Shown piece after piece: positions 1-59,345 of a DNA stretch of 64,000 bases. The notes under the pieces were generated by a model. The model made no database searches, was not told the DNA's origin, and was given only the letters and a program-made list of their open reading frames with translations. Position numbers and translations under genes: made by a program. Within the stretch, counting starts at the first letter, position 1. Every line of letters starts with the position of its first letter. The DNA is from an uncultured Candidatus Peribacteria bacterium (lineage in GTDB: Bacteria > Patescibacteriota > Gracilibacteria > Absconditabacterales > Absconditicoccaceae), in contig CAZSQL010000003.1 of NCBI GenBank assembly GCA_964609035.1, forward strand, positions 4,058 to 68,057, written 5' to 3'.

Positions 1-739
1 TATTGCGCAAAATATAATCTGAAGTTTGTTCATCGTCATTTGTATGATCATCAAGAACATGCAGTAAAAAATATGTGGTTCATCCTTTTATTCTATTTAT
101 ACGCTCTATACAATGATTGTTATAGGAATTTTTTCATTTATATAAAGAATCTGAATCAAAATTGTCTATAATCTTAAATCAACTATTCAACGCATCATCA
201 ATAAATTGATCACAGTCATAAAACCAATTTCATAAAGTATCTGTTATTTTTGGTTTTACTATAAACGGCTGAAGTCAGAATATTTTTGCAATATCAATAT
301 ATATATGAAATAATTTTTTATGTAATAATACTCCCATATGAGAATCAATATGAGATACTTCAATTCAAGCATTTTTTGCAATTAATATCTGATTTATTAA
401 TTCTTTCTTAATTTCTTCATGTTTTGATTTGTATAATATATCATCAATATTTGATAAAAAATATCAATCTTTATCAATTAAGGAAGAAACTTCTTCTTTT
501 GGTAAAGTTGGTTTCCGCTTCAATGTTTCTAATAATCGTTCTGATGTTAATGTAAGATGTACTCAAATATCATATTTATTAAAAGCATCTTTTTTCATTC
601 TTATATCTTCGAATCATTGTCATGGCACAATAATACTTCCAGAAGTTGCCCTTCATTTTTGCAAAAGATTCAATGCCGATCTATTAGCACTTTTAGATAT
701 CCCAATATCATCTATATGTAATATAACCTCTTTTCTCAA
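1..739 (-). CDS. YdjC/ChbG-family carbohydrate deacetylase (C-terminus cut by window edge)
   Basis: Table-25 translation from TTG at 739: LRKEVILHIDDIGISKSANRSALNLLQKG...VGVHLTLTSE...SHIDSHMGV. Many in-frame TGA read as Gly. An in-frame TAA lies just upstream of the TTG. Confidence 0.6.
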
Positions 740-762
740 AATATATTAATAAATTATAAATT

Positions 763-1614
763 TTATTTTTGTGTTATTTGATTGTAATACATTTTATATT
801 TTTCTAAAAAATCATCATTACCCCATAAATTTAATAATTTTTTCATACAACTTGGTCTGTAATTTGAATCTACTCAATTAAAATGTATTATTGAGGCATC
901 TTTTATTAATTCTATATTTTCTTCTTTCATTAATATACGATGTTGAAAATTATATTTAAATTCTTTCTGTATTGGTATATTATTTTTGTATGCCCAAATA
1001 TTTAATATTGATTGATCAGCCCATTTAATATATTCTTTATATGATGATAGTAAGTATATTAAATAATCATAATTTAATTGGGTTCTATATTTTTTTGGTA
1101 ATAAAAATATTCATGCATTACTTGCTTCTCAGTTAATAAGAATTTTATCCTCCTCAAGTTTTTTGATTAGATTCTCATCATGATGATTCTTGAAAATCTT
1201 ATCATCTCATTGATAGGCTTCTTGTACAGTATAAAATTCATCAAAATTCATTAAGTTATCTAAATTATTCATAACTAAAGTATCTGCATCTAAATGCAAT
1301 ATATTATTATATTCTTTAAATACATCAGAAGTTCGCATAAGAAATCTAGCATAAAATACTCTAGGATCTATTTTCTTTGAAAGATGTCACATTATTGGTC
1401 AAACATTGTCTTTATTTAAATTATTTTCTATAATTCTTATTTTCTCTGAAATTCACAATAAATCTTGTATTTGTTTTTTAGTGAGGTCTGTGTGACATAT
1501 TATTATATCTGAATGTTCTGGATAGTTTTTTAAAATACTAAAAAGAGATATTTTGATCGTATCAAAAAAAGATTGATTCGTAGACATAAATATACAATTA
1601 TTGTTATTCTCCAT
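763..1614 (-). CDS. Glycosyltransferase family 8
   Basis: 852 nt, ATG to TAA. Motifs LHLDADTLV (DxD), NAGIFLL, ADQSILNIW. Start overlaps the stop of the upstream GT2 by 11 nt. Confidence 0.7.
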
Positions 1615-2479
1615 TTGGATTTGATATTTTTATAGGATAATTTCAATATTTATTCTGAATTTTATTAATTATATTTTTTTTAATATTATTATCTATTATT
1701 ATACAGTTGTGATAACTAATATATTTATTCTCTATATCTTTTTCTATCAAACGTATTTCAACCTTATTTTTTATATTTCGTTTTCATAAAAAATTTTTCA
1801 AACACTTATCAGCCTTTTCTCAACCATGATACTTTTCATATAAATAATGATCAACACAAATAGAAGGATCATAAATTATTTTTTTTCATTTATCTTTTAA
1901 ATTCAAAAAAAAATCATCATGTTCTCTAGCATATTTCAGATTATTGTCCCATCATCAGATTTTTTTTATATCATCAGTTTTTCATACAAAAAAATTAAAT
2001 ATGGTTTCATAATTATCAGATAGTGGATTTTTCTTATCCACAAAATGGAATAATATATTATCGATTATTTCATAATATCCATGAAAATAATATTTCTCAT
2101 GTCCAATATTATTTACATTTCATCACGACAAAACAATATCATCATTATATATAATATTATCTGCTAATTTTATTATATCAGTTTTAGGTGTACATATATA
2201 ATCATCATCTAATAAAATCACTAAATCAGTTTTTACATTTTTTATAGCTATATTCCTGTTCTTAGATATTCAAGAATCTCAATTAGTTAAAATATGAACA
2301 ATATCATTTCTAATTTTAGGATTTCTAGATGAGTCTGCAACAATTATTTCTAATTTTGGATAGTATTCACGAAATGAGGTTATCATTTTATTTAATGATA
2401 AACTCCTTTCATGTGTAGCCACTATAGCAGTAATGTCTGAAGTATCCATATTATCTCTATTAAAAAGATTTAAATTCAT
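1604..2479 (-). CDS. Glycosyltransferase family 2
   Basis: Translated codon by codon, 291 aa, no TAA/TAG. ITAIVATHERSLSLNKMITSF...IIVADSS...VILLDDD. Extends ORF-track fragment 2279..2479 through TGA codons. Confidence 0.7.
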
Positions 2480-2506
2480 ATATAAAAATTATTATACATT
2501 AAAAAA

Positions 2507-3415
2507 TTAGTATGCAAATTCATAAGGCAACAAATCAGCTCCTGCATTTGCTATTAATGTATTTTGTGAATCCTCAAACCATTTCTTTAATCTAAAATTA
2601 ACCTTTACCTCAAAATCATTTTTTACTTCTTCATAATATTCTAATCATAAAGATATATATTGATATGCTTTAATTGAATTTCAAATTGATTGATTTATAC
2701 AAGCCAATATCATTATAGAATTTAATATTTCCACTGGAAATCTAATATTTCTATATTTTAAAACATATTCAAAATACTCCAAAGATTTTTTTATATCATT
2801 ATTTTTAAAATAAAAATAACCAATAAATCGATAAAATCTTAAACATCAAGGATTCTCTTTGATTCAATTTTCTAGCTGTTCTATATATTTTGATCTATAT
2901 TTCTTATTTTCTGGATAATGGTGTAGCTCTATTCAGTTTAATCGATCTCATTTTCATCAATTATCTCTTATGTATATCTGAGGACAAGCATGTACAGAAA
3001 ATAAAAATCTAACATAATTTTTGTTTATTAAACACATTTTATAATCTTCAAATGGTTCTTTATATCTATGATCAATCCATTTAATAAAATATCACGATAC
3101 TCAATCCACATTCTCCATTTTTTTTATTTTTTTAATATCTTCTCTAGAGATATTTTCATCTCAATCTAAAATTAAAACCATTTCACAAGAATTGTTTTCT
3201 ATTGATAAATTTCTAACATCTATCAACCTTTTATCTTTATGTTGTATATCATATTTTTTTGCTTTTATTCAAAAATCACTTAATATCTTAATAGAATTAT
3301 CTGTAGATCATGTATCAAAAATAACAATATCATCAAACAAGTCATATATATTTCATAAATTTTTTTTAATATTATTCTCTTCATTTTTAATGATCATACT
3401 TAGTCATAATTTCAT
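2507..3415 (-). CDS. Glycosyltransferase family 2 with TPR-like C-terminal region
   Basis: 909 nt. LSMIIKNEENNIKKNL...DIVIFDTGSTDNS...MVLILDGDE. C-terminal helical-repeat region. Confidence 0.65.
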
Positions 3416-3443
3416 TTATATTTTAATAAAAGAAATAAAGAAA

Positions 3444-5057
3444 CTATTTTTCGCTTAATGTTCATCATTCAAAAAAAATCTTTTTATTAAATTTGATTTC
3501 ATTAATAAAACTTTTATCATGTGATACAACTATAACCATTCAATTAAAGTTATTTATAGCAGATCTTAATGCTTCTTTGATATCTACATCAACATGATTT
3601 GTTGGTTCATCAAACAATAAACAATTATCTTTCTTCAATGAAATTAAAGCAAACGTTAATCTTAATTTCATTCCCGGACTTAATAATTCAATATTTTTTT
3701 TCTTATCTTCATCTTGAAATCACATAGCTCAAAGTACTGAATGAACATCTGTTAATGAATAATTATTCTTCTCAATTAAAAAATCTATAGCTGATATACC
3801 TGATGGTAAATTATCTTGTTCTTGAGAAAAATATCATATTTTAAAAGACTTATTAATATTTATATATCAATTTGTAGGATTTAAATCTCATTTAATTAAC
3901 TTTAAGAAAGTACTTTTACCACTTCAATTCTCTCAATATATAATGATTTTATCTTTAGATGAGAAATTTATATTTTTTATATTTAATTCAAAATCATCAT
4001 TATCTTCATATTTAAATTTAACTGAATTCACATCTATTCATCAGACTATTTCTTCAGAAGGATTAAACATTATTTGTGTAGGCTTTTTTATTTTAGGTTT
4101 TTCTATTTGTTCCATTCTATCTATTCTATTTTGCATATTTTTTGCACTTTTAGCAAGTTTCTTTTCTACTTTTGATGCTCAATCTCACTTATCATTATCT
4201 CTCAAATTTCACTTATTACCTATACTCTGTGCTTTTTGTTTTAATTCTTGAGTAACTTTTTTTATACGAAGCTCTTCTTCTTGTTGTCTTTCATAAGCTT
4301 CAATATTCTTTTCATACTCCATTTTTTTTTGTCTTTCATAAAAATCATAATTTCAAGAATACTGAATTATTTTATTATTATTTATTTCAAATATTTTTTT
4401 TGTAACATTATTAAGAAATTCTTTATCATGTGAGACTATAAGACAAGATGTTAGAGATTCTTTAAGAAGTGTCGTCAATCACTCTATAGAAGAAGTATCA
4501 AGATCATTAGTTGGTTCATCTAACAATAACAAATCTCATCATTTAAGTAATGTTGAAGATAATAATAATTTTCTTTTTTCTCATCAACTTAATTGTTTTA
4601 CATTTGTATTAAGCGAATATTTTCATAATCATAGTTGATTCAATATTTTTTCAGATTTATATTCAAAATCATATCATCACAATCTATCAAAAACATCGTA
4701 TACTTCTGTATATTCTTCCATTTTTTTTTGATCTTCAAGTTGCGTAATTAGATCATCAATTTTATTTTCTAATTCACCAATGCCCGTATAATTTTTCATA
4801 AATTCTAAAATAGAACATTCTATATTTTCTATAGACATTTGTTGTTTCATATATCATATTAATGGTGTTTTTGAAGAATAGACAACAGATCACTCATATT
4901 CATCATCCTCTCAAGACAATATCTTAAATAATGTTGTTTTCCCTACTCCATTTATTCAAACTAATCATGCATTAATATTGTCACCAAGATTTAATTCTGC
5001 ATCTTCAAAAATTGTATTAGATCAAAAAGATTTTTTAAGTTTCTCTACTTTTAACAT
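3444..5057 (-). CDS. ABC-F family ATPase (two ABC domains)
   Basis: 1614 nt. Walker A GINGVGKTT and GENGSGKST (Gly encoded by TGA), signatures LSGGEKRK and LSPGMKLR, Walker B LLLLDEPTNDLD and LLFDEPTNHVD. Confidence 0.8.
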
Positions 5058-5197
5058 AATACCTAACATTAAATATATAAATTATAACAATTTTAAATAA
5101 TACTATACATAAATATACACAAAAATCAATTTAAAATTGTTTTTTTTTAAAATAAGTAAATATTATTTTAACTAAACCCTATTTAAAGTATAAATCC

Positions 5198-5839
5198 TTA
5201 ATCATAAAATTCTGTGAATAATTTGATATGATCTTTTAAGTATTCAGGATGCCATTGAACACAAAGTATTGTTCATTCTTTATTTTCTATAGCTTCTATA
5301 AATCATTTATCATTATGTGCAGATATATAAAGTCATTTTCAAACTCTTTTTACACATTGACTATGTATTGAGTTTATCTTTAATGATTCTTTTTTGTATA
5401 TTTTAAATAATTTAGATTCTTTATTAATACTTACATTCTCAACATAATCAAAACTATATTTAACATCTGGTATATTTTGTATCAAAGAACCTCACAATGA
5501 AACATTTATGAGTTGCATTCATTTACATATTCACAACATAGGTTTTTTATATTTTATTATTTTTTTAATAACAGCTATAATAGATTTATCACTATTTAAA
5601 TTTGTTGAATTTTTTCATTTATACTGTTCTCAATACAATGTTGAATTAACATCTGAATCTCATCAAGGTATTAAAAATCAATCTAATTTTAAAATATAAT
5701 CATCAATATTTCTAGAAATAGATGGAATCAAATAACATAAAAACTTATTGTTTTCTTCAAGAGCTTTTATATAAGATAATGGCAATTGATCCAAAACATT
5801 ATCTTGATTATAACCAACTATAATTCATATTTTTTTCAT
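5198..5839 (-). CDS. Class I glutamine amidotransferase / gamma-glutamyl hydrolase-like (peptidase C26)
   Basis: 642 nt. PGGDSDV, nucleophile elbow GICKGMQLIN, VQWHPE near the C-terminus. Confidence 0.7.
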
Positions 5840-5990
5840 AATTAAACTTACAATAAAATGTTTTTTATAAAATTATTGTATATAACTTATATTATAATTC
5901 AATTAAAATAATCTATATATTAAATTTAAACTAATATAATTAGCGAAAGCTTAATCTAATAATTATTTTATCTTTTTTTAATTTAATTTA

Positions 5991-6188
5991 GGGGCTTCTT
6001 CATCTTTAAAAATAAGAAAAATCCAAATTGGGATACATATCCTCACCCCGCAATTCTGCGGGGTTCAGTCATCTAACAGCCACTATCCGACATCTTCGTT
6101 ACACTCAGACATCGGACCATCGGCAAACGTTATACGTCATAGTCCCATCTATAAAAAAAACATAAAGAGACAGGAAGAGCTCTTTTTT
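5991..6188 (+). ncRNA. Candidate structured RNA / repeat element, family member A
   Basis: 5' GCUuCUUC pairs with 3' GAAGAGC. Internal TAAC..GCC..GGC-AAAC-GTTA helix covaries with members B and D. Carries the CCCCGCAATTCTGCGGGG hairpin (6046-6063). Ends in the palindrome AAGAGCTCTT plus a T-run. Confidence 0.35.
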
Positions 6189-6196
6189 ATTTTAAC

Positions 6197-6547
6197 TTAA
6201 TTTTTTTTAGAAAATGACTTCTCTCGCCCGACTAACTGCTTACTAATAGACTCAATCATCTGATTGATAACAACAAAATCTTTCAAATCAATTTCTCTCA
6301 AATCCTTGCACAATCTTATCAACAATCTCACTACTTCGATATATCCTCTCGCCTGTTCTAGATAATTCTGTTTTTCTATGTGTGAATTAGCACGATAGAT
6401 AGCAATAATCAAGTCAATAGCTTCTTTCTTGATCGTTTCTCACAGCGTGTATTTGTAATCTCTTTTGAAATTACGTACGACCAAAAATAACTTTTGCAAC
6501 AAATCGTAGGAAACTTTGTAAACAGGTAAATTATCGTATATTGCCAT
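6197..6547 (-). CDS. avd: DGR accessory variability determinant (Avd; four-helix-bundle / 23S rRNA IVS protein family)
   Basis: MAIYDNLPVYKVSYDLLQKLF...IAIYRANS...VRLLIRLCKDL. Start overlaps the RT 3' end by 17 nt. Joins ORF-track pieces 6440..6673 and 6197..6412 through a TGA. Confidence 0.75.
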
Positions 6548-7748
6548 GGCAATATCATTGAGGATAAAGATTTTTAATTTCAGAAGATTTGAGTTTTCTG
6601 ATATTGGGAATGGCTTTTGCATATGATTTTGTGAAATGGAATTGTGACCAAAACTTATTGGAGAATTTATCAATCACTTTCTTTCTGATGTTGTACGTTC
6701 TATAATGATTGAGAATTCATAGGTAGGAATTAACTATCGATTGCGTAAGCTCTTTATCAAAATTTTTGCTTTTATTCACTTCCTGCACTTTTTTGTAAAA
6801 ATTCCCAATCGTTCTTTTGCGTATATAGGTACGATACGGCTTGATATATGCTCAAAGAAATTGTGCTCACTTGGTATAATGTTGAAAATAGATTTTCTTG
6901 GGATGAAGCGTAAGATGTAATTTTTTAGTCAGAAAATCTCTAATTTTGGAAATCGCAGAAAGTAATTTTTCCTTGTCAGTATCGATGATAACAAAATCAT
7001 CTACATATCTGCCATAATACGAAAATCCTAGTTCATACTTAATATATTTATCCAAACTATCCAAGTAAATATTGGCAAATAACTGACTTGTTAAATTTCA
7101 AATTGCAAGTCCTGTGTCCTTCGGAGAGTGAAACAGACTTTTGTCGTTTGGTAATCAATTTCAGTCAGATTTGGATCATTTGATAATGCAATTCTGAGTA
7201 GAATCATGAAATATGACCTGACGAATAAGTTTGATGAGAAAATCGTAATCAATAGTCAATCTTTCCCTTTTTTCGAACAAAAATGTTTCAATTTTTTCAA
7301 ACAATATCTGTTTGTCAATGTGCATAAAAAATCACTTGATATCGAGCTTGAGAATATAAACATCGCGACTATAATTTTGCGAGCAAGAACGAAGAAAATG
7401 TTCTACTCTTTTGATGCCAAAATGTGTTCACTTTTCTAATCTGCAGCTATAACTATCATAGATAAAATGACGATCAAATAGTTCGTAAATATAATTGTAA
7501 ATCAAGTGATGAATTATTCTATCACGAAAATCCGCGGCGAAAACTTCCCTTTGGACGGGATCTTTGATGATAAAGCAGATACTGGGACTGATAGCATAAG
7601 TTTCGTTCACTAAATCATTTCGCAATTCAATAATTTTTGATTCATAATTCATTTCAAAAGCAACAGCAGAATTTGTATTTCTTTTATGCTGACGAGTATC
7701 GTAGTATGCTTGGAATAAATCATAAAGTAGCTTGTCTGTATCTAACAT
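6531..7748 (-). CDS. Diversity-generating retroelement reverse transcriptase
   Basis: 405 aa joined from three ORF-track pieces in one frame. DGR-specific motif LAIGNLTSQLFANIYL (Gly is TGA) and catalytic YGRYVDDFVII. Confidence 0.9.
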
Positions 7749-7767
7749 TTTTCATAATCATATAAAA

Positions 7768-7806
7768 GCTGACCGAACCCCGCAGAATTGCGGAGAAATG
7801 ATCAGC
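7768..7806 (-). promoter_or_regulatory. Stem-loop in the TR-to-RT spacer of the DGR RNA
   Basis: Outer stem GCTGACC/GATCAGC (with a G-T pair) encloses CCGCAGAATTGCGG (7778-7793). Lies between the TR end (7814) and the RT start (7748). Confidence 0.5.
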
Positions 7807-7813
7807 TTATTCC

Positions 7814-7977
7814 AGTTCTTGAGCAGACGACCGCTGAAACCATAATTTCTATTATTATTGTTTCGATTCCATTTATTCTGATTGAAGTTTGCATTGTTTC
7901 CACCAGCCAACCAAACGTTGGATCGTTCTCCGATATTGTTGAATTTATTATTATTCGGATTCCAGTAGCCCGCAAGG
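7814..7977 (-). repeat. DGR template repeat (TR)
   Basis: 164 nt, aligns gap-free with 8241..8404. 20 mismatches, 18 of them at TR adenines on the coding strand. Rich in AAT/AAC codons. The 3' 28 nt (GGTTTCAGCGGTCGTCTGCTCAAGAACT) is identical to VR. Confidence 0.85.
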
Positions 7978-8133
7978 AATAAAGATAGCCACTAACTTTG
8001 TCATACTATCCTAGCGAATAATATGATCTTTTACTACCATACAGTTTTATATGGTGGGCTATTGAACTAGACATACACGCTCCTTGTTCCCGTAAGAACA
8101 AAGACTCTGGCAAAAAATCTTATAGAGAAAAAT

Positions 8134-8158
8134 GGACAAAATGCAAAGCATTTTGTCC
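8134..8158 (-). terminator. Hairpin terminator downstream of the DGR target gene
   Basis: Perfect 11-bp stem GGACAAAATGC-AAA-GCATTTTGTCC, followed on the minus strand by ATTTTT. Confidence 0.5.
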
Positions 8159-8223
8159 ACCGATATTTTGTTGAATTAGATTTTTTGCTTGAAATAGTCA
8201 ACATAGACAAATAGTCGGATGTT

Positions 8224-8236
8224 TCGGCTACGCCGA
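8224..8236 (-). promoter_or_regulatory. Short GC hairpin immediately 3' of VR (candidate DGR target-recognition hairpin)
   Basis: TCGGC-TAC-GCCGA begins 3 nt past the target stop codon and VR end. Position matches the hairpin/cruciform described downstream of VRs. Confidence 0.45.
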
Positions 8237-8238
8237 GT

Positions 8239-8997
8239 CTAGTTCTTGAGCAGACGACCGCTGAAACCATAATTCCTGTTAAAATTGTATCAACTCCATT
8301 CATACTGATCGAAGTCTGCACCGTCCCCACCAGCCAACCAAACGTGGGATCGTTCTCCGATATTGCTGAAAATATCATTATTCGGATTCCAGTAGCCCGC
8401 AAGGTGACCCTTGACTTCTTTATTAAAGAATTTCTTGTATTCGTCAGAACGATCTGGTTTATCTTTCATTTTCTCTTTAAGTTCATCAACCGTCATCAGA
8501 TATTTCTGTTCAACTTCTTCCTTGCTGCAATTCTTAGCTTTCATCACTTCTCTGATAAATGCATCATAAGTAATGAATATTTGTTCTCATTTTGCTGGTC
8601 ATTCAAGATATTCTACCACGTCTCACGTAGCATTTACTTTTACTTTCATCTCTCCTTTATTATAAACATTCCTTTTTTCTTCTTTCCATCCTTTGCTATC
8701 GATTTTGAACGTATCTTCCTCGAATTCTAATGATTTAGTAAGTGTTTCTTTGGATTCTTTTTTGCTAGAAACTTTCTTTTTAAGTTCATCGCCTCCATGA
8801 AGCATATTGTAGGCTTCTTCAAAAGAAACGCCCATTTTTTCAGCGACTTTTTTGATAAGTGCTATATCTTCTTTACGAATTTTTATTGTCTGTTGAAATC
8901 ATTCTGTTTGTTTTCGTCCATCTCTAGTTTGCTTAATAGTTTCTTGTGTCTTTTTCTTTTTTTGAGAAACATATTCTGCAACTTCATCATCAGACAT
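8239..8997 (-). CDS. DGR target (variable) protein, C-type-lectin/FISUMP-like C-terminus carrying VR
   Basis: 252 aa, ATG 8997 to TAG 8239. C-terminus ...LAGYWNPNNDIFSNIGE(CGA)SHVWLAGGDGADFDQYEWSGYNFNRNYGFSGRLLKN. Three ORF-track fragments in one frame joined by TGA. Confidence 0.8.
8241..8404 (-). repeat. DGR variable repeat (VR)
   Basis: Last 164 nt of the target CDS. Counterpart of TR 7814..7977 with adenine-specific differences. Confidence 0.85.
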
Positions 8998-9342
8998 AAC
9001 TTCTGCAAGTTTCTTTTGCTGTTCTTAAGTAATAGCACCTTGTTTCTTAATATTCTTGAGTATCGCTCAATTTTCTCTGATAATGTCTTGTGTTTTTTTG
9101 ATTTGATTGTTCATAGGAATAAAAGTAATGAAGTAAAGTTATGTAGTAATTATAATCAGAATTTTTTATTTTGCAAATTTTTGAAAGAGAAAATTTTACT
9201 GGTAAAATCTATCTGTTTTAGTTAGGTTTTAACACTTGAATCTTTTAAAGATTTTCAATAATTTACACTTGATTCTATTTTGCGAATTCTTATATTTTTA
9301 TCGGAAAAGACAAACTAAATATTTACGTATAATCGCTAATAA

Positions 9343-9936
9343 ATGGCTAATTTAAAAGACAAATTACTTAACTTAAACAAAGAAATACTAAAAAAAGATT
9401 TTTTAGAGAAATTAGTAAAGAGATTTTGATATACCTACGAAATGGACGATTTATCCAATCTGGGGTATATCTCCGTGATAAAAAATGGTAAACGATATTA
9501 TAATAATCAGATCAAAACCATCAAAAATCCGTATATCATCTGAGCTGCGTATATGGACTTCAAAGACTATATGTTCTGATGACCAAATTTCTTCAATAGA
9601 TACGGCTTTACGACTCAAGTTTCCAATATTTTCACCGTATATAATCTTCATTATTCCAAAGAGATCGAAATACTCGGAATCAAATATAATTTCAAGAAAG
9701 TAAAAAAAGAGTTTCTCTATGGGAAAGACACAAAAATGATCAATTATCACAATCTGTATTTTATGAATAAAGAAAGATGCTTTCTTGAATTTGTAAGGAC
9801 ATATAGCTCGTATGACGATACATTCTTCATAGATAGCTATAAGCTTTTAGATAAAGAGAATTTAGCCAAAATGATAAAAAAGTATCCTATCAAATCCGTT
9901 TTAGATAAAGTAAAAAATATAGAAAAATGTATATAA
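9343..9936 (+). CDS. AbiEi-like antitoxin / transcriptional regulator
   Basis: 197 aa. ...LSNLGYISVIKNGK.YY... resembles the AbiEi wHTH region. Stop overlaps the start of the downstream AbiEii gene by 10 nt. Confidence 0.55.
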
Positions 9937-10784
9937 ACAATATCAAAAAGTTTATTTGAGTAGATTTTGATTATTCCAAAAAAGATTTTCTTGAAATATT
10001 GGAATTATCCAATAGTTATGGATTCGACGCATATAAACTCGAAAAAGACTTTCTTCTGACGGTTATCTTGATTTTCATCTGAAGAAATTATAAGGAACTG
10101 ATTTTCAAAGGATGAACTTGTCTCAACAAAATTTATCTTGATTATTTCAGATTGAGCGAAGATTTAGATTTTGTAGTGATCAATACATGAAATAGAACAG
10201 AAAGAAAAGCGATATTAGAAGACTACAAACAGAGATTGACCAAAGATTTGGCTACACTCGGACTGGAAATCACCGATCAAAGAACGAAATATAACGAAGA
10301 TAGACAATGAATCTTCAATTTTTCGTATATTTCGCTCATAGACAATTCCCCACAAAATATTCAGATAGATATCACCATGAAAGAAAGATTAGAAATTGAG
10401 CCTGTAAGCAAACACATAAAATCGATTTTTATCAGCAAGACTATGGAAGAAAGCATTTTCATTGAAAACACAATAACCTGTATGGAATTTGATGAAATAG
10501 TTGCAGAAAAGACAAGAGCGAGTCTTACAAGAATACAACCGGCAATTAGGGATTTTTTTGATGTCTGGTATATCAAGAATTTTGCAAAATTCGACTTTGA
10601 AAGAATTATGGATTTGATAGAGACAAAACTGGAAGAATCGAATCATGAATATACTATTAATGAAAGCTTCGATTTGCTCGAAAAACAGATTGAAACAGAT
10701 TTGAAGCCCGTATTGAAAAAGAATTTCGAATTTGACCTGAAAGAGATATTCGAATTCATCAAACAACTGAAAACAAAAAAATAA
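9927..10784 (+). CDS. AbiEii/AbiGii-family nucleotidyltransferase toxin (DUF1814)
   Basis: 285 aa. LEKDFLLTVILIFI...LIFKGGTCLNKIYLDYFRLSEDLDFV is the family hallmark. Extends ORF-track 10377..10784 upstream through TGA codons. Confidence 0.8.
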
Positions 10785-10845
10785 TGAGCTGAATGTGAGC
10801 CACAAATGAGCCAAATAAATTTTAACTTTTTTTTAATTTAATTTA

Positions 10846-11037
10846 GAAGAGCCCTTCCTTTTAGTGATTGTGGGTTTAATTACGGACTACGAACCTACAA
10901 CACGCACTATCCGATATCCCCGACCTAATGGACTTCAACGGTTCGTCGGAGCATCGGACTAGTGCGAAACGTTGTCTGTCATATCCCTATAAGCAACTAA
11001 GTCCTTTCAGAAAGAAATTTAGAGGGGATTTTTTTTA
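10846..11037 (+). ncRNA. Candidate structured RNA / repeat element, family member B
   Basis: Closing pairing CCCTTC/GAGGGG. Nested helices ACAAC/GTTGT, CGCAC/GTGCG, TCCGAT/ATCGGA, CCGAC/GTCGG with a conserved unpaired AAAC. Ends GGGGA plus T8. Flanked on both sides by TTTTTTTTAATTTAATTT. Confidence 0.4.
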
Positions 11038-11176
11038 ATTTAATTTTTTTAGAAAAAGAAAACCCGCCACCACGAAGGTAAACGGGAAATGCTTTTTTAA
11101 CAACTCGAAATGAAAAATGTTTAAGTTATCACTATTTTTCTAAAGCATAACTAATTAAGATTCATTGTAACTAATG

Positions 11177-11201
11177 AAGCTCGGATGTGCCGAGCTTTTT
11201 C
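11177..11201 (+). terminator. Rho-independent terminator
   Basis: AAGCTCGG-ATGTG-CCGAGCTT followed by TTTC. Closes a roughly 150-nt unit that starts after the third TTAATTTAATTT..TAG motif. Confidence 0.6.
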
Positions 11202-11347
11202 TAATTATTAAAATATATATCATAATAAGTGCTTATTTCATTAATTAAGTATTTCTATTTAAAATAAGAAAAAATATAAAATACCGTATTATCCTAAAAA
11301 CAATACAAAAAATTTAAAGCAATTATACCAATACAATTAAGTCTAAT

Positions 11348-11968
11348 CTAAATAGTCCAAGACCCACGAATAACTCAAACTAAATAATAATATCATTGAT
11401 ATTCTTCAAAAACCAATGTAAGACTCATTCGATCCAATCATTCATATTGTGGATCAAATCAATCAAAATAATATTCTATCGATTCAGCACCAGGAAAAAC
11501 ATCATCAATATTATTTAAGTTATTTCATCTAGCAATTTTTTGATTTATCAAAATTTGGTCCGCATATAAGAATCCTGTAGAATAAACCCATTTTTTAAAA
11601 TAATTATATTTGGTCTCAATCAACTCAAAACCAGCTCCATCTGTATATCCCCACAAGAAAGTACCACTATTCAAATCACCTTGAAAATCATCTGGATACA
11701 AAACCATAGAATGATCTAGATCAACATAAGTATATGGAGAAAACCTAACTCATTTAACAGGATGTGCAAAATCAGACATTTCACTCCACTTGTCTCATTG
11801 CATCAAAGTCAATATATCTCTAGAATAATCAACAATATCAAAGTTTTTATTTATACTTTCTCAACTACCTAAAGATTGATTCTCTCAATCAAAAATATCT
11901 GTTTTTAAAGAACATCAAAACAAAAATAATGATATAATAACAAACAACATTAAAAGAACTTTTTTCAT
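11348..11968 (-). CDS. Hypothetical lipoprotein
   Basis: MKKVLLMLFVIISLFLFGCS: signal peptide plus lipobox whose Gly is TGA. 206 aa, ATG to TAG. Confidence 0.6.
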
Positions 11969-12023
11969 TTTAAATTTTAAAAAATAAAATCTATCTAAAA
12001 AGTCTTAAACCAAAATTACATAA

Positions 12024-12125
12024 AAGGTTTCAAAGGGCGCAACAGGTTTCAATAGGCTGAAAAGAGCATGACTTTTGTAACCCTTGCAACTTTGTAACCT
12101 TTGTAACTTTGTGGCCATTGAAACT
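12024..12125. repeat. Dyad array of GGTTTCAAT / TTGTAAC words (family 1)
   Basis: Left arm GGTTTCAAAGGGCGCAACAGGTTTCAATAGG, centre AAAGAGCATGAC, right arm CCTTGCAACTTTGTAACCTTTGTAAC. Same layout at 30944, 38755 and 43925. Confidence 0.7.
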
Positions 12126-12133
12126 TGATAACC

Positions 12134-12598
12134 TTATACTTTTAACTTGATAACTGTCTTTATATCTTCCAACCTATAACCTTTTCTCATAAGTTTTTGA
12201 ATAATATCAAATCAATCAACTCATCTTTTTTTGTAAGAATCTATTTCTTTTCTAATTTTCTGAAAAACACCAACAGATATATCTTCTTGATAGTCTTTTA
12301 TCACTTCATTTATCAATTTTTTGTCTACTCATTTTTGATATAATTTGTTAGTCACGGCAATTACTGGCTTTCATTTATTTACCAATTCGCTCCTAATATA
12401 ACTTTCTGCAAAAACTCTATCATCAGCAAATTTTTTTGATTTGAGATAATCCATCGTATATCTTATTTCATCACTATTATATCATTTTTGTTGCAATTTA
12501 ATTCTCAATTCTTTTTCAGTTTTTGGATAAACAGAAATGTATTTTAAAGCATACTGACAACAATCAGAATATAATGTTTTCTCTTCTTGTGTTGCCAT
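12134..12598 (-). CDS. recX: RecX family regulatory protein
   Basis: 154 aa. ...CCQYALKYISVYPKTEKELRIKLQQKGYNSDEIRYTMDYLKSKKFADDRVFAESYIRS... three-repeat helical RecX pattern. Confidence 0.7.
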
Positions 12599-12600
12599 AA

Positions 12601-13227
12601 TTATTTTTTTAAACTAAAAGTAACAGTTTTTTCATCAATATTGAATATAGAAATAATATCTCATTCTTGTTTTGAGCTTTCAATAGACTCCAAAAGCGCT
12701 TCTGTAGACAAAAATTCTGAAAACTTTGTGATAACAGAAACCATGTATTCATCATTTGTATGGTAAAACATCTTTACTTTGTCATCTACATTGTAATCCA
12801 CATCTTTTCTCATTTGATTTAAAAATCTAGAAACTTCTCTAGCCATTCATTCCATTTCAAGCTCTGGAGTGAGCTGTAAATCTAATTTTGCTATAACTCC
12901 ACCATCGATAGCCACATCATCTCCATCCAAACCTTGATAAGCTATTTCATAATCTTCTTTTTCCAAAATCCATTCATTTCCATTTTCATCAAAAACTTTT
13001 ACTTTTCATTCTCAAAGTTCTGTGATATTTCACATTTTTCCATATTTAATAATATTACCAGTATCTTTTGCAAATTTAGCAGACAATGCAGATCATAAAG
13101 GTTTAAATACTTTTGTAATTTTTATATCATCACCAAAAGATTGAATATCTTTTACATTAATTTCTTCCTTAATAATATTTCAATACTTGTCCAAAACATA
13201 ATCTACAGAAAAATCTCACATAATCAT
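12601..13227 (-). CDS. Stand-alone ORF equal to the C-terminal region of type-2 isoleucyl-tRNA synthetase
   Basis: 208 aa. FKPLGSALSAKFAKDTGNIIKY...AKLDLQLTPELEMEGMAREVSRFLNQMRKDVDYNVDDKV matches the IleRS C-terminal pattern (LD..IT.EL..EG.ARE..R.IQ..RK). No catalytic domain lies upstream. Confidence 0.5.
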
Positions 13228-13484
13228 AATTTTAAATTATAAAAATAATAATACTCTATATCATCAAACATCTTTTATTTATTTAAGTTTGATTTTCAAT
13301 TCAATAATTTAAGAAAAGTTTATTAAAGTACTTTTTACTAAAACAAAGTTAAATACTAAGAAACAGAATCAATTCTTGCATTTGAGGAAGAAATATTTAA
13401 TAATCAAGTATACACTGAAAAACTTGTTTTTTATACAAATCATGTTCCTATTTGTTACATAAGTAAGTAGCAAATGAAACATTA

Positions 13485-13560
13485 GTACAACTACTAGTTG
13501 TCTGTCATATCCCTAGAAGTAAATAAGTCCTTTCTGAAAGAAATTTGGAGGAGATTTTTT
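13485..13560 (+). repeat. Structured element family, reduced member C
   Basis: GTACAAC-TACTA-GTTGTCTGTCATATCCCTAGAAGTAAATAAGTCCTTTCTGAAAGAAATTTGGAGGAGA plus T-run. The 3' module is near-identical to that of B. Confidence 0.35.
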
Positions 13561-13578
13561 ATTTTAATTTAGATTTTT

Positions 13579-14358
13579 TTATATTCTAACACGTGTGTTC
13601 ATATGCTTTTCAAAAACATCCTTTAATTTTGTAATATATGTACCTACTTCTTTTAGTTCTTCTTTAGTTTTTTTATCTTTAGTATTATTAAACAGATAAC
13701 CATATAATTTTATCATATCATCAAGTATTTTTTTATTCATCATAAACCCATTCATTTTTTTATTGGTTTGTTGTATCTGATAAACACACTCATGTAAAAA
13801 CTTTTTTCCCAAAGGATAAAGTTCTTCTTCATTTTTTGCATCATTAAATTGATGTAAAATTTCATTAAATGTTCAATCAGGATCCCAATTATTGGTTTTT
13901 TTTATTCATGATAAATACAAATTTCAAATTTCATTTCTTAAACCATCAAACGAACCAATAAATCCTTTTTTTAATTTAATCAACTCCTCATTTTCACCAA
14001 CATTTTCTTTATTTTCTATTATTTCCTCTTTTTTTTCAGAATTTGTATTATCTTTTTCATCATTCAATTGTCACATCAAATCATCCATTTTACTATTTTT
14101 TTCTTCATCTGCTTTCATTTTCATATTATCCATCTCTTTTTTATGTTCTTCAGTATTGGCTTCTATTTGATCAACTTTTTCAGAAATGTCAGATTCTGAC
14201 GCTTCTGTTGTTTCTTTAGATTTAAGTTCTTTTATCTGATCTCTTATTTTTATAGCTTCCTCAAAATTATCTGATTCTACAGCTTCAGCTTTTTTTGCTT
14301 CAAGGTCTTTAATAAGCTCCTCATTAGTCTTTTCTGAAATATTAATTGAATTAATCAT
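13579..14358 (-). CDS. Hypothetical acidic protein with UVR-like motif
   Basis: 259 aa from two same-frame ORF-track pieces. ESDNFEEAIKIRDQIKELK resembles a UvrB/C (UVR) motif. Confidence 0.5.
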
Positions 14359-14465
14359 GATGACAATATTTTATGAAGTAAATTACACTTATAAAGTGTA
14401 ATCAGAATCAAAAAAAATGCAAATTTTACGCTTGATTTATCTTATTTTTATCTTAATTTAATTTA

Positions 14466-14563
14466 GAAAAAATCCCCTCCAAGTAACTAAGTAAGGGATA
14501 CGAACAGACAACAGCCGATACATGACATAACAAGTACGTCACAAAATCGGCAAACGTTGTCGG
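14466..14563 (+). ncRNA. Candidate structured RNA / repeat element, family member D
   Basis: GACAAC-A-GCCGAT...ATCGGC-AAAC-GTTGTC helix covaries with A and B. Preceded by TTAATTTAATTTAG. Confidence 0.35.
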
Positions 14564-14628
14564 AAAAGTTCAAAATAAACAAAAAAAGTGACATTACTGC
14601 TACTTAATATTTCTAAAACAAACAAAAA

Positions 14629-14844
14629 CTATTTTTTCATCAATTTCTGCAAGATAAACACATACGCTGCTACCCAAATAATAGCATAAATCCACCACTT
14701 AACAGTTACCAATGCTGGTATCAATACTGCCAACATCAGTGTAAATGCTACCAAACATAATTTAAAAACAGCAAATTCCCAGATAGACAATTTTGCTAAA
14801 TTTTTGATAGCTTTCTTTTTCATTCCCATAATTTTTTTAATCAT
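14629..14844 (-). CDS. Small membrane protein
   Basis: 71 aa intact ORF ending in TAG. Two hydrophobic helices (FKLCLVAFTLMLAVLIPALV, WIYAIIWVAAYVFIL). Confidence 0.5.
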   Translation of the reverse strand: MIKKIMGMKKKAIKNLAKLSIWEFAVFKLCLVAFTLMLAVLIPALVTVKWWIYAIIWVAAYVFILQKLMKK

Positions 14845-14874
14845 TTTGTTTTATTTAAATATGTAAATAATTAT

Positions 14875-14956
14875 TAAGTTATCAAGTTTTCAAGTTATCA
14901 GGTTTTCAAGTTTATAATTTTAACTTGATAACTTTTAACTTTATACTTTTTAACTT
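14875..14956. repeat. Dyad array of GTTATCAAGTT / AACTTGATAAC words (family 2)
   Basis: AAGTTATCAAGTTTTCAAGTTATCAGGTTTTCAAGTTTATAA faces TTTTAACTTGATAACTTTTAACTTTATAC. Related arrays at 25921, 31211, 38060 and 57845. Confidence 0.7.
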
Positions 14957-17850: not shown

Positions 17851-19371
<1,521 letters not shown>

Positions 19372-21712: not shown

Positions 21713-21810
21713 TCATAATTATATCCAAAAATCAAAAATAAATCAAAAAAATCGTCTTTTGAAAACGATTTCAGTATACATTTTATCTTTTTTCTATGTA
21801 ATATTTGTTT

Positions 21811-21946
21811 GACAGTTTACAGTGTACAGTTTACGGTGTACAGTGCACAGTTTACAGTGTACAATTACCAATTACCAATTCCCAATAAACCACTTCCCAC
21901 TTCCTAATTCCCATTTCCCAATTAACCAATTACTAATAAACCAATT
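21811..21946 (-). repeat. Tripartite word-repeat element (copy 1)
   Basis: (CAGTTTACAGTGTA)n, then (AATTACCAATT)n, then AATAAACC and CTTCCCA/TTCCCAATT. Homologous copies at 49823 and 55372. Confidence 0.7.
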
Positions 21947-24356: not shown

Positions 24357-25919
24357 TTATCACTTATCAATTAAATAAAGTTCTCTCTTGTCCAATATTT
24401 TCATCCCTCTTTTCAAATCATTTTTGTCATTTGCATAAAGTTGGCACAAAACGTCTCATTTTTTTACTAATTCTCAAACCTGCTTATTTAAATAAAATCA
24501 AGCTTGCTTATCCAATGGTGCTCCAAAAATTCTACATATTTTTTTCAACAATTCTACATCCATACTTTTGAGTTTACCAGATTTCTTGGCTATTAGTTTC
24601 TGAGAAAATTTAGCCAATGGTAGTTCTTCGGAGTCCAAAACTCATAAATATGAAGTATTTTTATAATCTGGTTTTACATTATGAATACTATTTTGAGACT
24701 GAATTAACTTTTGCATATATTCCCATGCCAATCAAGACTCTAATTGTTTTTTAGCTAATCAAATAGCCTTATCTCATCTTGCCAATCAAACTAACTCTAT
24801 CAATTTAGCAGACAAACTAATCGCTTTTTTCTTTATATCTTTTGAAAAAATTTTTTTGTTTTGTAATACTCTAAGAGCTTCCCTCGTTTGTAAAACTGCT
24901 CCAATTCACTTACCAATAGGATTATCTGCATTTGTTATATCCACAAAAACCTTCATTCCAAGCTTTTTTCAAATATATTCAAAATGTCACGCGATTCTTT
25001 TTGCTGTCTTTTTGTCAGGTATCTTTCAATTCTTTCAGACAGGTAAATCAATAAGACAATATTTTGTTCATCCAGCATAAATTTTAGCCATTATACTAAT
25101 TGCAACCTTGGCATAAGCTTCCATATACAATGGATATGAAACTTTTATAATTCTATCATTTGCAGGAGCAAATTTCAAAGATTTTCAATTTGCCAAACAA
25201 GATCAAGTCTTATCCACCAAATGCTTCATCTCTTGGACAGAAAATTCAGTATCCATAAGTACTTCCACACACTCACCCGTTGCAGCAGGCGAAGTAATAG
25301 CTTTTGAAAAAGTTTTTGGACTAGAAATACCAAGTGAACCAAGTATTGGAACTATAATCATAGTTGTTTCATTTCATGGCACACCACCAATACAATATTT
25401 TACAGCAGTATCATGTTTAAATTTTATCATATCTCACATCTCAGCAGAATACTTAGCAGTCAAATAAAGTTCTTCTTCATCACTAGGATAAGCAAAACTA
25501 CAAGCTGCATAATATGCAGTAAGTAAATCACTAATTTTGCCATCTGTCATATCTCTCATCAAAGCTTTTATTTCCTCCTCATTTAATTTTTTGCCCAAAA
25601 GCTTTTTCTTTATAGCTTGCAAAGACAATGGATTTGTCTCAAGAGTAGATATAGAAACAATATCTCATTTTTTTATTTCATATTTATCAAAAATATCTTG
25701 CGTAATTCAAACTTCTCAAATATCCACTAAATCATTGGTCAAATCAACATTTACAACTATATTCTCCCACTTATTGTTTTTTTTATAAGACAAAATAACA
25801 TCATCAATCGCTGTTATGCCAAATTTAAAAGCTTCAGCCTCATTCAACAAAATCTGCAAGCTATTTCCTGCTCTTATATCTATTTGTTTTACTTTTACAG
25901 GGAAGGTTTTATGTTTCAT
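24357..25919 (-). CDS. AMP phosphorylase (thymidine phosphorylase family), paralog 2
   Basis: 520 aa. KYCIGGVPGNETTMIIVP. Same architecture as 17851..19371. ORF-track pieces 25716..25919 and 25434..25628 are in frame. Confidence 0.8.
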
Positions 25920-34017: not shown

Positions 34018-34113
34018 GAATTTATACCGACAGATATTAGAAACTTTTAGATCAACCCCGCAGTATTGCGGGGGAAGAGATTAAAAATTTCTAATGCGCT
34101 TCGGTATAAATTC
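34018..34113. repeat. 96-nt imperfect palindromic element overlapping the helicase stop codon
   Basis: GAATTTATACCG/CGGTATAAATTC (12 bp), ATTAGAAA/TTTCTAAT (8 bp), apical CCCCGCA-GTAT-TGCGGGG (34056-34073). Length is a multiple of 3. Confidence 0.75.
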
Positions 34114-38754: not shown

Positions 38755-38880
38755 ACACAAAGGTCTCAACAGGTTGCAAAAAGTTTCAATAGGTTGCAAT
38801 GGGTTTCAAGGGCTTCAAAGAGCATGGCCCTTGCAACCTTTGCAACTTTTGTAACGCTTGTAACTTTGCAATATTTTTAT
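38755..38880. repeat. Dyad array of TTGCAAC/TTGTAAC words (family 1)
   Basis: Right arm CCTTGCAACCTTTGCAACTTTTGTAACGCTTGTAACTTTGCAAT has a 9-nt period. Centre CAAAGAGCATGGCC. Left arm holds the inverted words. Confidence 0.7.
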
Positions 38881-43924: not shown

Positions 43925-44095
43925 TACAAAAGATTACAAAGGTTTCAATAGGTTTGCAATAGGTTTCAATAGGTTTCAAAGGGTTACAATAGGTTTCAAA
44001 AAACATGGTATTTGCAACCCTTGAAACTTTGTAGCCTTTGAAACATTGCAGCCTTTGAAACTTGTAACTTGTAACTTTTAACTTTCTAACTATTA
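43925..44095. repeat. Dyad array of AGGTTTCAAT / CTTTGAAAC words (family 1)
   Basis: Five to six phased AGGTTTCAAT units, centre AAAAACATGG, then TTGCAACCCTTGAAACTTTGTAGCCTTTGAAAC...TTGTAACTTGTAAC running to 5 nt before the ATG at 44099. Confidence 0.7.
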
Positions 44096-49740: not shown

Positions 49741-49822
49741 ATCAAAAAAATTAATTTATAAAATTCAATCAATTATACTTATAAACAAAAAAAAATGCAA
49801 ATTTTTAAGCACTTTTTTTATA

Positions 49823-49930
49823 TAGTGTACAGTTTACAGTTTACAGTTCAGAGTTTGTAGTTCAGAGTTCAAAGTTCACCAATTACTAATTACCAATTAC
49901 TAATAAACCAATAAACCGCTTCCCAATTAA
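49823..49930 (-). repeat. Tripartite word-repeat element (copy 2)
   Basis: GTGTACAGTTTACAGTTTACAGTTCAGAGTTTGTAGTTCAGAGTTCAAAGTTCACCAATTACTAATTACCAATTACTAATAAACCAATAAACCGCTTCCCAATTAA. Confidence 0.7.
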
Positions 49931-59253: not shown

Positions 59254-59280
59254 CAAAAATTCAACTAAAATATATAAAAG

Positions 59281-59345
59281 TTATCAACTATCAATTATCA
59301 ATTATCAATTATCAATTATCAACTATCAATTATCAATTAATTATC
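59281..59345. repeat. Tandem ATTATCAA(T/C)T words overlapping the comM-like stop codon
   Basis: TTATCAACTATCAATTATCAATTATCAATTATCAATTATCAACTATCAATTATCAATTAATTATCAAC. Same words as the in-CDS palindrome at 29347. Confidence 0.7.

Follow-up and report, generated by a model that had tools for sequence, protein, structure and literature searches.

A stretch of 64 kb (hereafter the window, ~27% GC) of contig CAZSQL010000003.1, from an uncultured bacterium of the Absconditabacterales, contains a block of accessory genes, consisting of a diversity-generating retroelement (DGR) and the toxin-antitoxin (TA) pair AbiEi/AbiEii, with one exact copy of a 19-nt sequence on each side. The question raised by this locus is what the two copies are, and where the block begins and ends. 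The initial annotation had proposed that they were cassette boundaries or att-like duplications or, alternatively, a promoter shared by small RNAs. The copies adjoin members of a family of structured elements, designated E, and we consider it likely that the E elements are long imperfect palindromic recombination sites, by which the accessory genes of Absconditabacteria are divided into cassettes, the 19-mer being their left outer flank. The array of the window would be integron-like and, as no recombinase gene accompanies it, similar to the clusters of attC sites lacking integron-integrases (CALINs).

The 19-mer, the E elements and their probable point of exchange

The 19-mer TTTTTTTAATTTAATTTAG was found by string search at 5973-5991 and 10828-10846, both on the + strand. 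The two copies described initially are thus real, with the correction that the second one begins at 10828 and not at 10827. They are 4.85 kb apart, with accessory genes between them. With up to three mismatches, seven matches were obtained in the 64 kb against 1.8 expected, a number reached in none of 100 shuffles. Variants with two mismatches are located at 11030-11048, 13554-13572 and 14448-14466, which bears out the earlier remark that variants of the 19-mer adjoin structured elements. The five copies are all on the + strand, between 5.9 and 14.6 kb, and each of them adjoins one of the elements E1 (5992-6183), E2 (10847-11028), E3 (~13497-13554) and E4 (14467-14556).

At least ten unrelated metagenomic or GTDB loci of Absconditabacteria contain solitary E elements with the same motif directly 5′ of them (related loci are designated by L and a number; L003, L004, L005, L016, L039, L052, L057, L114, L124, L125, L127, L128 and L129). 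Among the loci recovered by the metagenome and GTDB scans, the motif or a close variant abuts the G-run that opens each E1-type element, and such elements were found in further contexts (L016, L039, L052/L074, L057, L114, L124, L125, L128 and L129). In L052 and L125, the end of the motif deviates, reading TTTAATTTAATTTTTT instead of ...TTTAG. The GTDB loci with the E family belong to Candidatus Absconditabacterales/Absconditabacteria. In the metagenome scan with AAAATCCAARTKGGGRATA, 8 of 120 loci were real among the matches listed, most of these matches being due to chance, e.g., to a recurring conserved coding sequence. The left halves of L131 and of junction J11600 of L135 have no motif, and a motif-like sequence is found immediately 5′ of start codons in L057 and L074. 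Since the same motif is found at unrelated E elements, it is integral to the element and not a duplication arising from insertion of the block. Its place is at the outer end of the left half of the E element, where it forms a conserved A/T-rich flank, and it is not an att duplication. Concerning its role, it could aid cruciform or hairpin extrusion through its A/T-rich character, it could bind an accessory protein, or it could support outward transcription, the latter being favored by the motif-like sequences 5′ of start codons.

Alignment of the E sites showed a common order of parts, namely the 19-mer, a left arm (e.g., the "D" arm GGGGGCTTCTTCATC...AAAATCCAAATTGGGGATA), a variable hairpin that may be absent, an R″-like box ending in AAC (either YTAAC or ACAAC), a variable, covarying core hairpin of 35-60 nt, the sequence CAAAC-GTT, a right arm ending in a G-run, and the T-rich motif TTTTTATTTTAATTTAATTTTTTTTAG.

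The point of exchange was located by comparing loci that share one side of an element, considering 70 nt on each side. Identity switches at G|TT. Window E2 and L057 are 74% identical to the left of this point and 100% to the right, while window E4 and L001 are 56% and 100% identical, respectively. The opposite asymmetry is displayed by L057 versus L114 (100% left, 57% right) and by L003 versus L127 (99% left, 51% right). Window E1 is 56-61% identical on the left and 83-86% on the right to three DGR cassettes located elsewhere (L135 and L134 included), and 73% on the left and 53% on the right to L003. Altogether the exchange point could be narrowed to ACGTT, and each junction is found to the right of its 19-mer, at a distance of ~140 nt in E1 and ~125 nt in E2. 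The 19-mers were therefore mistaken for cassette boundaries, as each junction is an AACG|TT within an element (6129|6130 in E1, 10971|10972 in E2). Assembly chimeras were considered as the cause of the switches and rejected, because no more than 6-9 nt are shared where identity changes, a length judged too short for typical assembler k-mers to join across. The idea of a chimeric E1 hairpin in the window, formed by crossover in the loop, was discarded because the similarity to L135 left of GTT is only at the family level (56-61%).

Every left arm was cofolded with every right arm. The best partner of a left arm was the right arm at the far end of the gene block, and not the neighboring right arm. 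The left half of E2 (E2L) paired with the right half of E1 (E1R) at -14.2 kcal/mol (z -3.7), E1R being its best partner among 10 right halves, versus -8.7 kcal/mol (z -1.4) with the adjacent E2R; E4L paired with E3R at -25.5 kcal/mol (z -7.5), versus -7.6 kcal/mol (z -2.7) with its adjacent flank. Cognate pairing was found also in relatives: L016 (-49.5 kcal/mol, z -16.6), L003 (-44.2 kcal/mol, z -16.7), L074 (-27.2 kcal/mol), L131 (-58.3 kcal/mol), L132 (-38.8 kcal/mol), two cassettes of L135, and L134. Cognate halves in the order R...genes...L were present in ten of the twelve cassettes, with z between -3.7 and -17, and pairing was weak in the cassette of L057 (z -2.3). Adjacent halves at heterologous junctions gave z values from about +1.7 to -2.7. 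The D arm of E1 pairs with the D′-type right halves of relatives at -46 to -50 kcal/mol, and in L003 an 8.4-kb block, from the C26 gene to glycosyltransferases, is flanked by D′ and D arms, which indicates that E1L is the closing half-site of an upstream cassette.

A right half placed first and a complementary left half placed last are what is produced when a circle integrates through a site at the center of its palindrome. Integron cassettes have this R...genes...L structure, and the cassettes described here are circularly permuted units with a site of their own. The mechanism proposed is as follows. By strand exchange at G|TT, each integrated cassette would begin with a right half-site and end with a left half-site, and in the circular cassette the complementary halves would rebuild a single hairpin site. 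In the window, E1L would close a large upstream cassette (with C26, ABC-F and glycosyltransferase genes), to be followed by the DGR and AbiE cassette at 6130-10971, by the segment opened by E2R, and by a cassette for a UVR-motif protein (E3R...E4L). A tyrosine recombinase would act on a folded single strand, most likely the bottom (-) one, in a way similar to that of IntI on attC or of Xer on the CTX-phi hairpin. The candidate enzyme is a 270-aa XerA/IntI-like recombinase, the gene for which is next to a conserved attI-like site in four related loci.

Core hairpin and probable folded strand

A covariance model, R1, was built from the E cores and run on the window and the related loci. It gave 28 matches, 24 of them distinct, and within each locus all were on one strand. 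Across the 24 distinct cores, 94.8% of the helix cells were paired, compared to 65.6% in shuffled sequences and 23-36% in slid controls; 11 of the 13 pairs showed compensatory change with both sides changing, and the covariation score was 0.70 versus 0.15. The internal loops predicted for the cores are asymmetric, perhaps the counterpart of extrahelical bases. Of the 28 matches, 27 contain both AAC and GTT (L125 reads AACATT), with a purine after GTT where it could be read. The full attC consensus occurs in some sites (ATCTAAC and GCCTAAC; GTTAGAT and GTTAGGC), but not in others (CTACAAC; GTTGTCT).

The 310 helix cells include 292 Watson-Crick pairs, 2 G.T and 9 A.C or C.A. The bottom strand (- in the window) was more stable in 22 of the 24 cores, with RNA and DNA parameters alike, and in all ten cognate arm pairs, where wobbles numbered 33 in the bottom strand versus 6 in the top strand. 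The Watson-Crick character of the helices and the stability of the bottom strand fit a folded substrate of bottom-strand DNA, as in attC, and argue against a structured + strand transcript launched from the 19-mer. From this, we infer that the bottom strand serves as substrate in vivo.

These data bear directly on the possibility that the E elements are structured small-RNA genes, all transcribed from the 19-mer as a common promoter and terminated at the T-run after the right arm, with the block simply lying between two such genes. It would agree with the position of the motif at a fixed distance 5′ of the G-run in many loci, with the good folding of E1 and E2 as RNA (z -4.5 and -3.4), with right arms in which a terminal G/C stem precedes a T-run, and with the motif-like sequences 5′ of start codons in L057 and L074, which may act as promoters. 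However, small-RNA genes leave unexplained both the identity switches at G|TT and the complementary halves at opposite ends of a block. Besides, only 2 of the 310 helix cells are G.U against 9 A.C or C.A, the strand opposite to the proposed transcript is the better folder in 22 of 24 cores, and there are left halves without the motif (L131 and J11600 of L135). No Rfam family matched any E element, either at gathering score over the whole window or at E ≤ 5 over 5-16 kb; the only matches of these searches were tmRNA and a sub-threshold RT-7 within the DGR. A scan of the window for sigma-70-type promoters gave 61 sites versus 54 expected, none of them at the 19-mer, and is uninformative at this GC content. 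The promoter alternative of the initial annotation is thus weakened, and small-RNA genes are considered an unlikely explanation.

Another explanation is that the E elements are non-autonomous repeats of the type of miniature inverted-repeat transposable elements (MITE), repetitive extragenic palindromes (REP) or BOX, with the 19-mer as a preferred target or target-site duplication and the block between two independent insertions. The D and D′ arms do resemble terminal inverted repeats, similar A/T-rich motifs occur in direct orientation at both ends, the elements are multi-copy, intergenic and modular, and an IS110-family transposase gene is found beside one weak core in L134. But the flank motifs are sequence-conserved across unrelated loci, and hence part of the element and not a duplicated target, while the cores vary in sequence and keep their structure, which a transposase recognizing its ends by sequence would not tolerate. 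Furthermore, heterologous L/R junctions, together with cognate halves located kilobases apart, require exchange at the center of the element, and all the elements of a locus have the same orientation. Sequence-conserved ends flanked by differing target-site duplications, as expected of MITE or REP, were not found in the E elements. An origin of this kind seems quite unlikely.

Probable cassette exchange in relatives and features of the window

The block was compared with related loci. L003, from a closely related strain, is 97.6% identical to positions 1-5938 of the window. Its Peptidase_C26 gene, the same as that of the window, likewise has the 19-mer and an E1-like element upstream; beyond that element L003 contains unrelated genes and neither DGR nor AbiE, and the same is true of L004, L005 and the GTDB genome L127. 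L133 and L135, from two other assemblies, contain the block with the same order, AbiEii-AbiEi divergent from target-RT-Avd (RT, reverse transcriptase), and with 84-87% nucleotide identity to the window. Their blocks end in an E1R-type right half at the Avd side, and in a motif variant plus an E2L-type left half at the AbiEii side, while their neighbors are different (an AAA_14/DUF4143 gene, a second DGR cassette, an SLH protein). A DGR cassette is present in L134 too, bounded by the same halves, but AbiE is missing from it. Positions 10934-13300 of the window have 90% identity to L057, with E2R and the genes for a lipoprotein, RecX and the C-terminal domain of isoleucyl-tRNA synthetase (IleRS-C) in common; in place of DGR and AbiE, L057 has a one-gene beta-lactamase-family cassette. 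It lacks window 13300-14948 (E3R, the UVR-motif gene, E4L and a 71-aa gene).

So, the initial view of the block as a separate cassette that can be exchanged, and in which the TA pair is a passenger, is supported: the block recurs as a unit among other neighbors in L133 and L135, and the synteny comparison then advised showed it replaced at the same position by the beta-lactamase-family gene in L057. The content of the block is also as claimed, with agreement of Pfam, PADLOC and the comparison of the template repeat (TR) with the variable repeat (VR) of the DGR. The att proposal, on the other hand, fell: that the exact 19-mers are attL/attR-type duplications from integration of a 5973-10846 block is very improbable, as, despite the existence of two exact 19-nt copies 4.85 kb apart around accessory genes, the left copy and E1L adjoin the same C26 gene in the block-free L003, L004, L005 and L127, the homology with other copies of the cassette begins at 6108-6130 and not at 5973, and the motif flanks also solitary E elements in unrelated contexts, which bracket nothing comparable. 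An att site in a tRNA gene was discarded too, since the tRNA scan gave only tmRNA.

Cassettes in relatives carry defense-type genes (HaeIII and DpnII restriction-modification (R-M), ResIII, RhuM, Thoeris, type I R-M and Fic), as well as a CMD-family gene and methyltransferases. Single-gene co-oriented cassettes were found in L057, L016 and L074. Viral contigs were scanned for two strings specific to the E elements; the outcome was no match at all or 13 matches due to chance, none confirmed by the covariance model, and so no evidence of phage-borne E elements.

Two further observations on these loci can be mentioned. In L057, the positions 3600-3680, which take the place of E3R-UVR-E4L, hold three tandem copies of GTCATTCTGAGC type, a different repeat family. 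In L134, the IS110-family (DEDD) transposase gene (573-1694) adjoins a weak E core (1709-1810), which recalls the IS1111-attC elements that target integron attC.

The features of the window are the following. The genome reads UGA as sense, and translation table 25 was used; host genes have many in-frame TGA codons, e.g., 31 in a 541-aa gene. The 19-mer at 5973-5991 (+, exact match) is the outer flank of E1L (5992-6129, +), which consists of the D arm GGGGCTTCTTCATC...AAAATCCAAATTGGGATA, the V1 hairpin, the R″-like box ATCTAAC and the core hairpin, and ends in AAACG; its match to the covariance model covers 6064-6146 (70.9 bits). An E1L-type element adjoins the same C26 gene in L003, L004 and L127, where there is no DGR. 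The AACGTT junction is at 6126-6131 (+), with exchange between G6129 and T6130.

The DGR and AbiE cassette (6130-10971) opens with E1R and closes with the 19-mer plus E2L. E1R (6130-6183, +), the cognate of E2L, is conserved in L133, L134 and L135, where each DGR cassette has it on its Avd side. It is followed by the right-flank T-rich motif TTTTTTATTTTAACTTAATTTTTTTTAG (6184-6210, +; family D17), which overlaps the last codons of bAvd and is found also after right halves in L016, L003, L133-L135 and L128. The gene for bAvd (6197-6622, -; Pfam bAvd, E=1.2e-11), read from its first ATG, overlaps by 92 nt (6531-6622) the open reading frame (ORF) of the RT (6531-7748, -; Pfam RVT_1, E=1.9e-17). 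The Avd of relatives (L134 and L135) has 116 aa, with a 17-nt overlap with RT, and by this comparison the true start of bAvd is probably internal, near 6547. The RT has homologues with 74-90% identity in Absconditabacteria/SR1. The TR (7811-7977, -) is a 167-nt repeat 87% identical to the VR (8238-8404), and 18 of their 21 differences are at TR adenines. In the interval between VR and TR there is an RT-7-like DGR-associated RNA motif (7978-8111, -; Rfam RF03028, E=1.9e-8), with 46 bits against a gathering score of 117, which is probably a shortened variant. The DGR target gene (8239-8997, -) contains the VR at its 3′ end. An in-frame TAA separates the start of the target ORF at 8997 from an upstream ORF of 30 codons (8998-9117, -; ATG at ~9117), and the target may be either N-terminally truncated or read through. 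The system is a DGR by its RT, its Avd and the adenine-specific TR/VR differences at the 3′ end of the target.

A G/C-rich hairpin, CCCCGCAATTCTGCGGGG, of the form CCCCGCAAT(T/A)CTGCGGGG, occurs in E1 (6045-6066, +) and between TR and RT (7775-7800, -), and a similar one is found at 34045-34075 (-), after an unrelated gene. A specific link of this hairpin to the DGR was discarded, as the same hairpin is present in the DGR-free E1 homologues of L003 and L127.

The AbiEi antitoxin gene (9343-9936, +; PADLOC, E=1.8e-9) is upstream of the gene for the AbiEii nucleotidyltransferase toxin (9927-10784, +; Pfam, E=1.5e-33; PADLOC, E=4.9e-40), with a 10-nt overlap (9927-9936), as corresponds to a type IV TA system. 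The exact 19-mer at 10828-10846 (+) is the outer flank of E2L; a variant with two substitutions in the last 15 nt is located 5′ of the E2L-type halves of L133 and L135, and a looser one at J8183 of L134. E2L (10847-10971, +) closes the cassette, with the arm AAGAGCCCTTCC...GGACTACGAACCTACAAC and a core hairpin, and ends in AAACG; the covariance model matches 10888-10988 (63 bits), and the AACGTT junction is at 10968-10973.

E2R (10972-11028, +), 91% identical to E3R (family D16), opens the next segment, with the lipoprotein, RecX and IleRS-C genes; its right-flank motif is the 19-mer variant at 11030-11052 (+). The 208-aa gene at 12601-13227 (-) encodes the C-terminal domain of isoleucyl-tRNA synthetase alone (DUF5915, E=6e-28), and it is next to RecX in L057 too; it is either a gene fragment or a gene for an independent domain protein. 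E3R (13497-13554, +) is a right half only, with the junction CTAG|TT at 13494-13499 and, as right-flank motif, the 19-mer variant at 13554-13572 (+); it opens the cassette of a 259-aa UVR-motif protein (13579-14358, -; Pfam UVR, E=1.7e-10). In L134, a 262-aa gene occupies the equivalent place between E3R-type and E4L-type halves, the correspondence being of position only. The 19-mer variant at 14448-14466 (+) is the outer flank of E4L (14467-14556, +), which ends in AAACG, with the AACGTT junction at 14553-14558 and a covariance-model match at 14499-14573 (68.7 bits).

Elsewhere in the window there are intergenic tandem tracts with a period of ~7 nt, of types TTTACAG, CAATTAT and GTTTCAA/GGTTGCAA, at 21790-21945, 49800-49927, 29343-29402, 59268-59339, 12018-12127, 38755-38879 and 43959-44064. 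Two paralogues of ~510 aa (17851-19371 and 24357-25919, -) are 74% identical over a stretch of 151 nt. The L001 homologue of the first one matches PYNP_C, and both thus seem to be thymidine/pyrimidine-nucleoside phosphorylase-like.

Candidate recombinase and comparison with known systems

In L128, L130, L131 and L132, a conserved site is adjoined, in divergent orientation, by a gene for a 270-aa tyrosine recombinase. The recombinase gene, next to this attI-like site, is divergent from an array in L128, L131 and L132, L130 being interrupted by the end of the contig; in three of the four loci a cassette is seen to begin at the site. Conservation among the four loci extends from exactly AAC|TAG (CTAG|TT in the array strand) to the start codon. 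The other side of AAC|TAG is unrelated between loci and corresponds to the right half of the first cassette; the partner left half is 1-8 kb away, and the halves of the first cassette are cognate (dG -58 and -39). The recombinase-proximal site holds a dif-like 8-6-8 palindrome, AATATACA-N6-TGTATATT. In L003, at 18183-18345, a D′-type right half is found beside a hairpin like that of this site (TTGATATATACATTTTTTTGTATA), near a VIT1 gene and with no recombinase gene.

The 270-aa protein scored 227 bits with the NCBIfam model NF040815 (XerA), passing the cut-off of 220. With the integron-integrase model TIGR02249, the protein of L128 (2200-3012) and its homologues scored 199 versus a cut-off of 265, model positions 178-236 being missing. 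The best match in PDB was VchIntIA (2a3v), with which residues 4-170 and 199-270 of the query align, skipping ~43 residues of IntI, while the alignment with XerA (4a8e) runs from end to end. The additional domain specific of IntI, with the I2 alpha-helix, is absent. The family is kept across the candidate phyla radiation (CPR), with 3970 proteins at E<1e-40 and ~60% identity. By guilt by association only, we infer that the 270-aa recombinase is the enzyme of the E sites.

In L130-L132 the recombinase gene has downstream of it, in every case, a 258-aa gene composed of C-terminal parts of UvrB (Helicase_C, UvrB and UVR). Further on there are two small genes of the opposite strand and, beyond them and on that strand as well, a gene of ~4,550 aa. 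The window cassette protein at 13579-14358 likewise has a UVR motif.

Several observations weigh against taking the E elements as recombination sites of this type. Apart from AAC and GTT, the R″/R′ boxes agree with the attC consensus at just 1-2 further positions, the left side of E3 is present only in degenerate form, and the RhuM cassette of L074 has no cognate pairing. With 4.8 kb here and ~8 kb in L131 and L003, the cassettes are large, and they are multi-gene and, here, have genes on both strands, unlike classical integron cassettes. No recombinase is encoded in or near the array of the window (5.9-14.6 kb); the only tyrosine recombinase of the window (46416-47366), XerA-like and a 36%-identical paralogue of the 270-aa protein, is ~32 kb away. 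The 270-aa recombinase may be no more than the Xer of the host, with dif as its adjacent site, in which case the arrays would be similar to the integrative mobile elements exploiting Xer (IMEXs). Finally, all the comparisons were made on metagenome assemblies, and neither a circular intermediate nor an empty site was seen directly.

A more far-reaching proposal, to be taken as tentative and regarded by us as possible rather than probable, is that Absconditabacteria run a natural "proto-integron", in which a Xer-type tyrosine recombinase without the I2 helix captures and shuffles circular cassettes by means of long G|TT hairpin sites. Other UGA-recoded CPR lineages may perhaps do so too, and the cassettes would be whole DGRs, TA, R-M and other defense systems. 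If the proposal were true, the proto-integron would be a living example of the transition from Xer to integron, until now only reconstructed by protein engineering. The interpretation of the arrays as integron-like, should it hold, has consequences of its own. A cassette-exchange platform would be added to a candidate phylum of host-dependent organisms with small genomes. The arrays would offer a natural test of how integron-type single-strand recombination could arise from Xer recombinases, on which background is given in PMC4792948 and PMC7790495. A complete DGR would travel as a cassette, which would explain the occurrence of near-identical DGRs in multiple copies and varied contexts. In practical terms, the half-site pairing rule (R...genes...L, with complementary arms) would be a simple computational delimiter of cassettes and mobile defense genes in CPR metagenomes. 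A full-text search of the literature with integron terms gave no report of such arrays in Absconditabacteria, Gracilibacteria, Patescibacteria or the CPR.

Among known systems, the repeats REP and bacterial interspersed mosaic elements (BIME), BOX, and Correia or MITE are, like the E elements, multi-copy, modular, hairpin-forming and intergenic, but they are sequence-conserved within a genome and have neither split cognate halves nor a fixed point of exchange. The pdif modules of Acinetobacter plasmids are discrete modules, often with TA or resistance genes, placed between recombinase sites in varied contexts, which is similar to the cassettes described here; the pdif sites, however, are 28-bp double-stranded XerC/D sites of alternating orientation, with no long hairpins, covarying stems or co-oriented arrays.

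With IMEXs, such as CTX-phi, which integrates at dif as a folded single-stranded hairpin, the arrays have in common hairpin substrates and a conserved, Xer-like and probably housekeeping recombinase. As in XerS/difSL and XerH/difH, the conserved site is directly upstream of the recombinase gene, and successive elements stack there. On the other hand, phage and replication genes are absent from the cassettes, arrays are found also away from the recombinase gene, exchange maps to the hairpin base G|TT and not at the center of an inner palindrome, and the sites are many and divergent instead of dif mimics.

The comparison with integrons, above all sedentary chromosomal integrons, and with CALINs gives likenesses and differences. 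The differences concern the enzyme, the sites and the cargo. The recombinase of the relatives lacks the IntI-specific insert with the I2 helix, and the window array has no integrase nearby. The E sites are much longer than attC, with arms of 50-140 nt on both sides of the crossover, so that the right halves are substantial versus 6 nt in attC; they are flanked by a conserved 19-mer or T-rich motif, and their spacers are asymmetric (2 nt versus 5 nt). Integron cassettes are mostly short, with single, promoterless, co-oriented ORFs, whereas the cassette of the window has 4.8 kb and six genes on both strands. The likenesses are that cassettes form co-oriented arrays, with imperfect-palindrome sites conserved in structure and not in sequence; that, as in attC, AAC and GTT occur, in nearly all the sites, exchange maps to G|TT, and the bottom strand is the better folder; that each cassette is circularly permuted, with parts of its own site at both ends, and its cargo includes TA and anti-phage systems; and that, in the relatives L128, L131 and L132, the tyrosine recombinase gene is divergent from the array beside an attI-like site.

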